Below, in pieces: positions 3,413 through 4,179 of a stretch of DNA of 40,870 bases; the first letter of the stretch is position 1, and every line of letters begins with the position of its first letter. The DNA is from a virus (lineage: Duplodnaviria > Heunggongvirae > Uroviricota > Caudoviricetes): positions 1 through 40,870 of the IMG/VR virus record IMGVR_UViG_2917413769_000003; one strand, written 5' to 3'. The notes below the pieces were generated by a model. That model ran no database searches. It had not been told where the DNA came from and was given only the letters and a program-made list of their open reading frames with translations. Position numbers and translations under genes: made by a program.

Positions 3413-3440
3413 AAAAAACCCGCCGGATGGCGGGTTCAAT
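3413..3440 (-). terminator. Rho-independent terminator downstream of the lipoprotein gene
   Basis: Minus strand reads AACCCGCC-ATCC-GGCGGGTT followed by TTTTTTGC (8-bp GC-rich stem, 4-nt loop, T-run). Confidence 0.65.
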
Positions 3441-3453
3441 ATAATTAAATATT

Positions 3454-4179
3454 TCAGTTTATAAGTCCGATCTTATCAGCGCTTCGAGAATTAACTACAT
3501 CTCCAGAAGTCCCACAAGGCACGGCGACAGTTAGCATTTCAACGTATCCCCGATTACTCTGCTTTTGGCATAAAGTAGCGTGCATCCTCGCTAAACGCGC
3601 AGCGGAACCGAAATCGATTTTGGTTCTGTAAGTTGAATCTCGTAGAGCTGCTTTTTTTGCAATTCCACTAATATTTTTATCTTTAATTACAGATGCAAAC
3701 AAATTCAGTTCATTGCCGATCTGATTAAAACAAGCTCGATTAACGTCGACATCGGCGTAAGCTGAGATTCGCTTACAATCAGAGATCTGCGAAAGAATAG
3801 AAGAGTTAACCAACTGTAAACTTAATTTATAATCACCAACATAGGTATAAACTTTCTTTGGGTCAGTAGTCCCCGGATAACGAGTTACAAATGGAATGCT
3901 GTTGTAAGCATCTCGCAATGGTTCCGCGCCTTCACTTGTTAGTTCATTACCAACACCAGCAACGCCAACTTCTGGATGTGAAACTTCAAATTGAGTCTTT
4001 TCTTCGCTCTGTGTTTGAAGCCTGCTTCTCTGGCTTTCATCAACTTGCTTATCGTACGCTTGTTTTTCTTCATTTTTTTGGGCTAGCCATTTTTCTTGGG
4101 CTTTAGCACCGTTAGGGTCCCAACTACATGAAGTTAAAAAAAGAGAAAATACGATTGTAGTTACCGCAAGTCTGCTCAC
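3454..4179 (-). CDS. Lipoprotein of unknown function (moron-like insert in baseplate operon)
   Basis: 241 aa; GTG start; N-terminus MSRLAVTTIVFSLFLTSC has signal peptide plus lipobox L-T-S-C; locally AT-rich relative to flanks; own terminator. Confidence 0.6.
   Translation of the reverse strand: MSRLAVTTIVFSLFLTSCSWDPNGAKAQEKWLAQKNEEKQAYDKQVDESQRSRLQTQSEEKTQFEVSHPEVGVAGVGNELTSEGAEPLRDAYNSIPFVTRYPGTTDPKKVYTYVGDYKLSLQLVNSSILSQISDCKRISAYADVDVNRACFNQIGNELNLFASVIKDKNISGIAKKAALRDSTYRTKIDFGSAARLARMHATLCQKQSNRGYVEMLTVAVPCGTSGDVVNSRSADKIGLIN

Follow-up and report, generated by a model that had tools for sequence, protein, structure and literature searches.

What is an exported lipoprotein doing among the baseplate genes of a temperate phage, and is its gene a late arrival there or a long-standing resident? 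This question is raised by a locus in the prophage record IMGVR_UViG_2917413769_000003 (Caudoviricetes), all 40,870 nucleotides (nt) of which were analysed and are referred to here as the window. The gene in question (3454..4179, minus strand) has a GTG start and a TGA stop, encodes a protein of 241 amino acids (aa) according to the open reading frame (ORF) list, and is the first-position cargo of the slot between the genes for the baseplate hub and the membrane-puncturing spike. A first-pass annotation, made from the letters of the sequence, had taken it for a moron inserted in the baseplate operon together with its own terminator. The analysis reported here makes it very probable that the gene encodes an exported accessory lipoprotein in a cargo hotspot. 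What the lipoprotein does can be proposed more tentatively: the best explanation, held here at low confidence, is that it blocks tail-tip penetration or DNA delivery after adsorption, that is, that it acts in superinfection exclusion.

The lipoprotein and its family

The signal peptide with its lipobox (residues 1-18; 4126..4179, minus strand) was read directly from the translation. The N-terminus of the protein, MSRLAVTTIVFSLFLTSC, contains a basic residue (R3), a hydrophobic core of 12 residues (residues 4-15) and the lipobox L-T-S-C, the Cys18 of which is the predicted lipidated residue and residue 1 of the mature protein. The PROSITE PS51257-type rule for lipoprotein signals calls for a basic residue among the first seven, an uncharged hydrophobic core, the pattern [LVI][ASTVI][GAS]C and a Cys at positions 15-35, and all of these were found in the 241-aa protein. 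The lipobox Cys is invariant among 22 aligned homologues and is also carried by remote relatives. The residue at +2 after Cys18 is Ser, and in relatives across loci it is S, G, A or N, never D. Under the '+2 rule' of E. coli, lipoproteins of Enterobacterales without Asp at +2 are sorted by the Lol system to the outer membrane, and because its +2 residue is Ser and not Asp the lipoprotein is predicted to sort there. The 241-aa ORF with an LTSC lipobox that the first-pass annotation had placed between hub-like and gp45-like baseplate genes is present as described, on the minus strand.

The guanine-plus-cytosine (GC) content of the gene is 0.409 compared to a mean of 0.549 (standard deviation 0.029) in the 44 other ORFs of the window (z = -4.75), and its GC content at third codon positions is 0.30 compared to 0.627 (standard deviation 0.062; z = -5.2). 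The gene is the lowest-GC stretch of 726 nt in the 40.9-kb window, and a GC content of 0.41 or less is reached by 0.1% of sliding windows. The AT-richness relative to the neighbours, already remarked on in the first-pass annotation, is thus borne out. The GTG start lies 2 nt past the hub stop, and the Shine-Dalgarno sequence GGGGTG (4187..4192, minus strand), 7 nt 5' of the GTG, lies inside the final hub codons (R-G-A-stop).

AlphaFold2 modelled the full protein with a predicted local distance difference test score (pLDDT) of 86 and a predicted template modelling score (pTM) of 0.73, as a 46-residue helix followed by a compact domain. The helix is a charged tether (residues 22-67; 3979..4116, minus strand) predicted as one long alpha-helix with a pLDDT of 90-95; its length is approximately 7 nm, counting 46 residues at 0.15 nm each. 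The conserved globular domain (residues 68-241; 3457..3978, minus strand) is a predicted helical bundle of four main helices with two small beta-hairpins, and reached a pLDDT of 88.5 and a pTM of 0.83 when modelled alone. Invariant in the alignment are Cys18 and, within the domain, Cys 135, 150, 204 and 222, along with the motifs SHPEV, FVTR, SAY, HAARLAKMH, GYVEM, VPC and GDV and the polar residues H68, E70, N93, T99, R100, Y111, S139, Y141, K175, H200 and D227. The four invariant Cys residues of the domain are consistent with a disulfide-bonded periplasmic protein. In the homologues P0040, P0042 and P0045 the tether is swapped for non-helical linkers of approximately 28-50 residues, and part of the family (330-378 aa) carries a further N-terminal domain, which contains Cys and has no Pfam match.

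The lipoprotein had no match in Pfam, PHROGs, NCBIfam or PADLOC. When all 22 members were compared with Pfam at a permissive threshold (E <= 10), only noise came back, and a search of PDB by sequence, with the single sequence and with a profile, found no match, so that the description of the protein as unrecognised stands. There was no match to the LprI / DUF1311 lysozyme inhibitors (PF07007), nor significant structural similarity to them, and no homology or fold similarity to T4 Spackle gp61.3. Identity as an o-spanin (Rz1) was rejected on the ground that the lysis cassette, approximately 16 kb away, has its own Rz-like spanin (19730..20275; phrog_214, 1.6e-52). Judged by comparisons of this kind, the lipoprotein lies outside the Cor/Llp, Spackle, LprI, Bor/TraT and spanin families.

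The family is small and its position is fixed. It comprises 30 clusters at 90% identity among 5.8 billion sequences, and an exhaustive profile search of 1.84 billion representatives returned 33 members, all of them with a lipobox; the window protein itself has a 100% identical counterpart in Escherichia sp. E1130, which is annotated as hypothetical. In a tblastn search of 50,697 phage records (INPHARED) the lipoprotein was unmatched, and so was the long form P0037. A homologue lay directly after the hub in 40 of the 40 loci examined, at identities down to approximately 37% and with 379-aa long forms included. These loci came from Escherichia, Salmonella, Serratia, Rouxiella and Limnobaculum genomes and from 29 IMG/VR viral contigs. 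All 29 IMG/VR loci, which were found by a family-pattern search, had the homologue directly after the hub even where the hub was only 43-68% identical, and the four genome loci found by contig scan also placed it there (the form in Serratia sp. PL17 is 379 aa long, with a GC content of 0.39). The same slot holds homologues of 45-49% identity, namely P0013 in Salmonella, where more than 1000 contigs carry it, and P0017 in Enterobacter and E. coli. One and the same Salmonella protein, P0013, accompanies four tail fibres that differ from one another (381, 407, 470 and 552 aa).

Two side observations concern individual loci. The Salmonella prophages with P0013 also carry sopE, recognised by its SopE_GEF domains, just past the tail-fibre assembly genes (11851-12573 in L007 and 11552-12289 in L010), which agrees with the published sopE-converting SEN34-like prophages of S. 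Paratyphi B (PMC11632088). In L023 (IMG/VR UViG 2531839381_000010) no intact ORF follows the hub stop between 7858 and 8585, and a tblastn homologue is present from 7899 on; this copy may be disrupted or N-terminally truncated.

When compared with its E. coli orthologue (L001), the lipoprotein gene gave a ratio of nonsynonymous to synonymous divergence (dN/dS) of 0.11, with a dS of 0.66. Its flanks, represented by the 3' part of the hub gene and the sheath-initiator gene, gave dS values of 0.67 and 0.68 against the same E. coli locus. The gene has therefore co-diverged with its flanks and is not a recent insert, and its low GC content, having been maintained over this time, is no mark of recent arrival. 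These findings, together with the same position in all 40 homologue loci and a slot that is never empty, speak against the earlier view of an inserted gene.

The gap between the hub and spike genes

Flanking baseplate genes were found in 372 of 5426 complete E. coli genomes (about 7%). The full query including the lipoprotein gene aligned in 12 of the E. coli genomes and the lipoprotein gene alone in 13, and the lipoprotein is missing from about 96% of the E. coli prophages that share the same baseplate. Other E. coli slots were occupied by a phrog_3443 gene, which encodes an unrelated secreted protein of 115 aa (287 genomes), or by a gene of a 153-aa type that is a remote relative of the lipoprotein (12 genomes); these counts reflect nucleotide similarity, miss very divergent alleles and account for 312 of the 372 slots.

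The first position of the gap was never empty, and an exported-protein gene was present in every relative examined. Besides the lipoprotein, the occupants were phrog_3443, a signal-peptide protein of approximately 112-117 aa (L002, L003, YP3, Klebsiella phage Mulock, vB_EcoM-689R2 and SEN34), the 153-aa signal-peptide protein (L004), and gp67 of Hafnia phage yong1. All of the first-position genes examined carry a signal peptide, with the exception, as annotated, of yong1 gp67, indicating that it is the envelope location that is conserved and not the fold. Two annotations deserve comment here. The yong1 protein, annotated with 136 aa, shows no signal peptide, and its start may be miscalled. SEN34_20 (L006, SEN34 NC_028699, 2441-2785) is annotated with 77 aa, while its ORF really begins at a TTG 2 nt past the hub stop; so reannotated it is a signal-peptide protein of approximately 113 aa of the phrog_3443 type.

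An intermediate group, P0057/59/60, links the 153-aa protein and yong1 gp67 to the lipoprotein domain, with which they have the two-Cys core in common (hhalign probability 97.9%, E = 4e-13). This group matched the family profile at E = 5.5e-8 to 1.9e-6, whereas direct comparison of the 153-aa and yong1 forms with the family was weak (E = 1.2e-3 to 1.7e-3). Through this link, two of the three first-position types form one superfamily, to which phrog_3443 is unrelated. We propose a candidate family, 'post-hub exported protein' of Brunovirus-like phages, in which a signal peptide or lipobox, a core of the form C-x14-C ... [FW]-x-H-[AW]-A-x-[LM]-A-R-x-H and a gene placed directly after the hub stop were found together.

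A second position is optional. Many loci carry a further module after an intergenic gap of 150-280 nt, and these modules combine freely with any first-position gene. They include HEPN-like pairs, made up of a 243-273-aa protein and a 127-142-aa HEPN-like protein (weak PADLOC HEPN_IX match), a pair with a YafO-family toxin (PF13957, 4e-16), a set of a 347-aa protein and a 170-aa membrane protein, and further two-gene sets; all are PHROGs of unknown function. The modules were located in L002 (2559-3718), L004 (2560-3712), L019 (9019-10262), L034 (8765-9929), L041 (8799-9987), L025 (8728-9724), L027 (8827-10379) and L031 (8674-9745). They are regarded as candidate anti-phage or toxin-antitoxin systems. 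Every slot variant was AT-rich, with a GC content of 0.35-0.48 compared to 0.50-0.58 in the flanks (window, L001-L007, L011, L012 and L043). As judged from the comparison of these loci, the gap between the hub and spike genes is a two-position cargo hotspot with an obligatory exported-protein gene. No description of the hotspot, of the lipoprotein gene or of the STY106x locus tags was found in the literature searched.

Both edges of the slot could be recognised. The left recombination boundary was placed by alignment of hub 3' ends within the last 18 hub codons and the stop (4182..4238, minus strand): the hub is alike in all variants up to '...WYMDMMC', after which the cargo types differ over the final approximately 18 codons. 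The final hub codons (N/Q-R-G-x-stop) contain a G-rich, Shine-Dalgarno-like stretch in each slot variant examined, and in nearly all loci the first cargo gene begins 2-14 nt past the hub stop. A link between hub residue F (in place of E) and lipoprotein cargo that seemed strict in 10 loci was rejected when deeper relatives were found to have L, M, I or E.

The right edge is an intrinsic terminator (3406..3437, minus strand) with a 9-bp stem, an AUCC loop and a U-run, a putative insulator 5' of the spike gene. On the minus strand the hairpin (3437..3416) reads GAACCCGCC-AUCC-GGCGGGUUU, followed by UUUGCUUUCU, and begins sixteen bases beyond the lipoprotein stop. Its minimum free energy was -16.1 kcal/mol (z = -4.08 against 200 dinucleotide shuffles), and none of the shuffled sequences (0/200) folded equally well. 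The first-pass annotation had recorded a near-perfect terminator with an 8-bp GC stem. This was approximately right: the stable hairpin and the T-run are there, and the stem has nine pairs, six of which are G-C.

The attribution of this terminator to the lipoprotein gene did not survive comparison with other loci. The hairpin ACCCGCC-NNNN-GGCGGGT, the T-run and the ribosome binding site of the spike gene, 'GCTTTCTGGAGCCTACYAA-ATG', were kept with unrelated cargo in L002, L003, L004 and SEN34, and were also kept in the Salmonella lipoprotein loci, including L007. The more diverged prophages L011 and L043 have a closely similar hairpin and T-run 5' of the spike gene, and the 379-aa long-form locus in Serratia sp. 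PL17 ends with the same terminator. Since it is common to most slot variants and closes the slot even where the cargo is entirely different, the terminator is, on this comparative evidence, a feature of the phage backbone and not the gene's own. Its most economical role would be to keep transcripts of the cargo, in the lysogen, out of the spike gene and the baseplate genes that follow, an idea that draws on the moron concept (PMC3594210) and on lambda biology.

The stem of the terminator was invariant across loci and only the 4-nt loop (window 3424-3429) varied. ATCC, the loop of the window and the Salmonella loci, is the exact reverse complement of GGAT, the loop of L001, L015 and many other loci of E. 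coli, as if the hairpin loop had been flipped. Further loops found in other loci were ACCC, ATCT and ACCGA.

Transcription of the slot and the surrounding prophage

The prophage encodes a lambda-type Q antiterminator (23882..24304, minus strand; PF06530, E = 3.8e-41), and its head, tail and lysis genes are all on the minus strand downstream of Q, which places the lipoprotein gene inside the Q-dependent late operon. During lytic growth Q would permit late transcription through the slot terminator. No sigma-70 promoter was found on the minus strand between 2500 and 5500 by a standard consensus scan. A relaxed scan gave one weak candidate, TTTATA-17 nt-TACACT (4281..4309, minus strand; 8/12 matches), within the hub coding motif GVYIV...YTGD; because this motif is itself strongly conserved, conservation of the site is uninformative about function. 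Promoter-like sites 5' of the second-position modules were no commoner than in shuffled sequence, and no flanking direct repeats, Rfam families or tRNAs were found. With no convincing promoter, a GTG 2 nt past the hub stop and a Shine-Dalgarno sequence in the hub codons, the sequence supports expression of the lipoprotein gene with the Q-dependent late operon.

The virion module is of the Brunovirus type, the prototype of which is Salmonella phage SEN34, a temperate myovirus. It comprises a tape-measure protein (6137..8212) with a C-terminal lytic-transglycosylase (SLT) domain, a Dit-like protein, a Pam3-gp18-type plug, the hub, the spike, a sheath initiator, baseplate J and wedge-1. Further products of the prophage are a CI/LexA-like repressor, an integrase, a holin, a lysozyme and the Rz-like spanin already mentioned. 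The hub gene (4182..5245, minus strand), upstream of the lipoprotein gene, is matched in both halves by phrog_196 and weakly by PF22759 E217_GP41. In the window it is split by a 1-nt deletion in an A-run into the overlapping ORFs 4673..5245 and 4182..4718, positions 4746-4747 reading AA where all relatives have AAA. When one A was added, a hub of 354 aa was obtained that is 95.8% identical to the E. coli orthologue; the frameshift is either a sequencing error of the draft assembly or a sign of a defective prophage. The spike gene downstream (2641..3393, minus strand) has the PF18352 N-terminal spike domain (1.9e-44) and a PF18946 / GpV Apex motif. Its true start is the ATG at 3393, with a GGAG ribosome binding site at 3402-3405, and this start context is conserved.

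The replication and early region of the window (24593-38804) is unlike the lambda-like O/P replication type of SEN34. It encodes a primase-polymerase/VapE protein, a DUF2800 protein (PD-(D/E)XK nuclease), an Enc34-type single-stranded-DNA-binding protein, an SPFH/Band-7 protein, a family-A DNA polymerase, a PAPS-reductase-like protein and an SNF2 helicase. Its gene content thus marks the prophage as a mosaic, in which a Brunovirus virion module is joined to a different replication module. Between Q and the holin gene (21176-23194, minus strand) lie genes for a methyltransferase (PF13489), a 298-aa protein without a Pfam match and a partial MptE-like protein. In lambdoid phages this post-Q gap is the classic place for cargo.

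Possible functions and parallels in known systems

In the explanation advanced here for the lipoprotein, the protein would receive its lipid and be delivered to the outer membrane, into the inner leaflet, where the approximately 7-nm tether would hold the disulfide-bonded domain near the level of the peptidoglycan. The spacer of Lpp, at roughly 8 nm, is of comparable length. The domain would bind a part of the incoming contractile tail tip, or an envelope structure that has to be breached, and so stop penetration or DNA delivery when adsorption is already past; the target might be the spike, the hub or the SLT-bearing tape-measure protein. Interference with the tail tip is favoured because the hub, the spike and the SLT-bearing tape-measure protein are the constant companions of the gene. 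That P0013 occurs with four tail fibres makes the phage's own receptor an unlikely target and points to shared tail-tip machinery or the envelope. In this scheme the terminator would halt non-antiterminated transcripts, such as those from cargo promoters in the lysogen, before the spike and baseplate genes, and Q-modified polymerase would ignore it.

Parallels exist in several systems. In HK97 the tail operon contains the moron gp15, a membrane protein that acts through the incoming tail to block entry (PMC3594210). T4 Spackle (gp61.3), a helical bundle of the periplasm with disulfide bonds, inhibits the tail lysozyme and neutralises the peptidoglycan-degrading activity of the incoming tail tip (PMC7677548), and the SLT domain of the tape-measure protein offers an analogous peptidoglycan-degrading target here. 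Ltp of Streptococcus thermophilus phage TP-J34 is a membrane-tethered prophage lipoprotein that blocks DNA injection by way of the incoming tail and not of a receptor (PMC3952083). In contrast to the window protein, it acts in a Gram-positive host, is unrelated in sequence and is encoded by a lysogeny-module gene with its own expression in the lysogen.

Further support comes from the second-position modules, which resemble prophage anti-phage cargo such as that of the P2 Z/fun hotspot (PMC9122126; bioRxiv 10.1101/2024.10.15.618418). The Z/fun and old/tin hotspots of P2 described in these studies are like the hub-spike gap in their fixed position between conserved phage genes, which in one of them is 3' of a baseplate gene, and in their diverse accessory or defence genes, which related prophages swap. 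The gap described here differs in belonging to another phage lineage, in its flanks, and in combining an obligatory exported-protein gene with an optional second module. A wider proposal, which goes beyond the exclusion role and seems doubtful at present, is that the post-hub proteins (the lipoprotein superfamily and phrog_3443) are an undescribed periplasmic anti-penetration class, the position of which would reflect co-evolution of tail tip and inhibitor, and that together with the adjacent toxin-antitoxin/HEPN position they would make up a new two-tier defence hotspot. Anchored in the outer membrane and reaching the peptidoglycan level, such proteins would neutralise the tail-tip complex (spike, hub or SLT-bearing tape-measure protein) of incoming contractile-tailed phages, and the hotspot would belong to a prophage lineage that is widespread in Enterobacterales and to which sopE-converting Salmonella phages belong.

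The moron concept itself applies in part. Like the lambdoid morons as defined by Juhala and Hendrix (PMC3594210), the lipoprotein gene is an extra gene in a late tail operon, with an odd GC content, a terminator after it and Q antitermination. It differs from morons in that no promoter of its own was detected, that it is coupled to the hub through its Shine-Dalgarno sequence, that the terminator is part of the backbone, that no locus leaves the position empty and that the family has long been resident there. Of the first-pass reading as a moron expressed from the prophage, the accessory status (13/372) and the deviant composition are supported; the terminator is not the gene's own, and no convincing sigma-70 promoter was found upstream.

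Several points weigh against exclusion as the function. There is no homology to any characterised exclusion protein, and the proposal, tentative as it is, draws on sequence and context. The missing sigma-70 promoter is one difficulty: as the sequence reads, the lipoprotein would be made late in the lytic cycle, when exclusion matters less. A first position that is filled in every relative could equally serve the phage's own cycle. The many invariant polar residues could also belong to an enzyme or to a site that binds a ligand. Finally, the GC content is persistently low without any sign of recent transfer, for which selection for H-NS-type regulation is one possible reason.

Some of these same points would suit a role as a late-cycle helper, in which the lipoprotein, made together with the tails, changes the envelope of the cell that produces it and thereby keeps progeny from being lost to the dying cell and its debris, or aids envelope breakdown or release. 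The first of these is the role proposed for T5 Llp, described as a 'lytic conversion' protein (PMC9586334). The coupling of the gene to the hub inside the Q-dependent late operon, the lack of a detectable promoter for the gene itself, the first position filled in every relative examined, and the co-divergence with the flanks all agree with such a role. It is nevertheless unlikely: the occupant can be replaced by one of unrelated fold, which would be unusual for an essential step, the lysis cassette is already complete with holin, lysozyme and Rz-like spanin, and the strongly deviant composition is typical of accessory cargo. The helper role overlaps with post-adsorption exclusion, since one molecular activity could serve both. 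About as unlikely is a function outside all of those considered here.

The first-pass annotation had pointed to the receptor-blocking lipoproteins Cor and Llp, so that the lipoprotein would inactivate an outer-membrane receptor from its periplasmic face, as Llp does with FhuA (PMC9586334). There are likenesses. T5 Llp and Cor (phi80, N15, T1) are phage outer-membrane lipoproteins that face the periplasm, have conserved Cys residues and are encoded among tail genes, and the window protein is likewise a predicted periplasm-facing outer-membrane lipoprotein whose conserved Cys residues are consistent with disulfides, the disulfide being known to be intramolecular in Llp and inferred here. In contrast, no sequence or fold similarity to Cor or Llp was found, and the mature protein has 223 residues compared to about 61 in Llp (approximately 3-4 times larger), with a tether that would be needless for a plug and a helical domain. 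Moreover, the gene is next to hub and spike and not next to the receptor-binding genes, and the occurrence of P0013 with four tail fibres leaves no match to the phage's own receptor. A receptor blocker of this type is thus judged quite improbable.

Slightly less probable again is a factor for host fitness or virulence, acting in serum resistance, adhesion or envelope stress tolerance like lambda Bor or plasmid TraT. The gene is AT-rich accessory cargo of pathogen prophages, its Salmonella homologue is on more than 1000 contigs and occurs with sopE (PMC11632088), and Bor is a precedent (cited in PMC3594210). Set against this, no Pfam similarity to the Bor/Iss or TraT families was found, no promoter for expression in the lysogen was found, and the strict linkage to the hub across very diverse hosts would not be expected. 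A structural or assembly component of the baseplate, to which the position between co-oriented baseplate genes and the translational link to the hub might point, is hardly credible given a Sec/SPase-II signal that exports the protein from the cytoplasm where tails are assembled, a deviant base composition and absence from about 96% of the E. coli prophages with the same baseplate and from all INPHARED cultured phages; the conserved structural protein of matching composition that the first-pass annotation had named as the result most damaging to its view is likewise contradicted by the 13/372 distribution, the deviant GC content and the export signal.

Brunovirus (SEN34-like) prophages are common in E. 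coli and Salmonella, and some of those in Salmonella deliver the virulence gene sopE. The analysis adds a fixed two-position hotspot in their baseplate operon, undescribed in the literature searched, whose first position always encodes a protein targeted to the envelope. It also adds a compact lipoprotein family that has no known relative and whose fold, predicted with confidence, has no match among solved structures. The gene is small enough for easy cloning, and cognate phages (SEN34, vB_EcoM-689R2 and YP3) are available in culture. If the role as a late-cycle helper were true, it would reveal an unrecognised periplasmic step in myovirus release. If post-adsorption exclusion is true, the lipoprotein would be an exclusion factor of a mechanistically new kind against contractile-tailed phages of Gram-negative bacteria, with a bearing on phage-therapy host range and on competition between prophages, and new defence systems could be sought in the second position of the hotspot.

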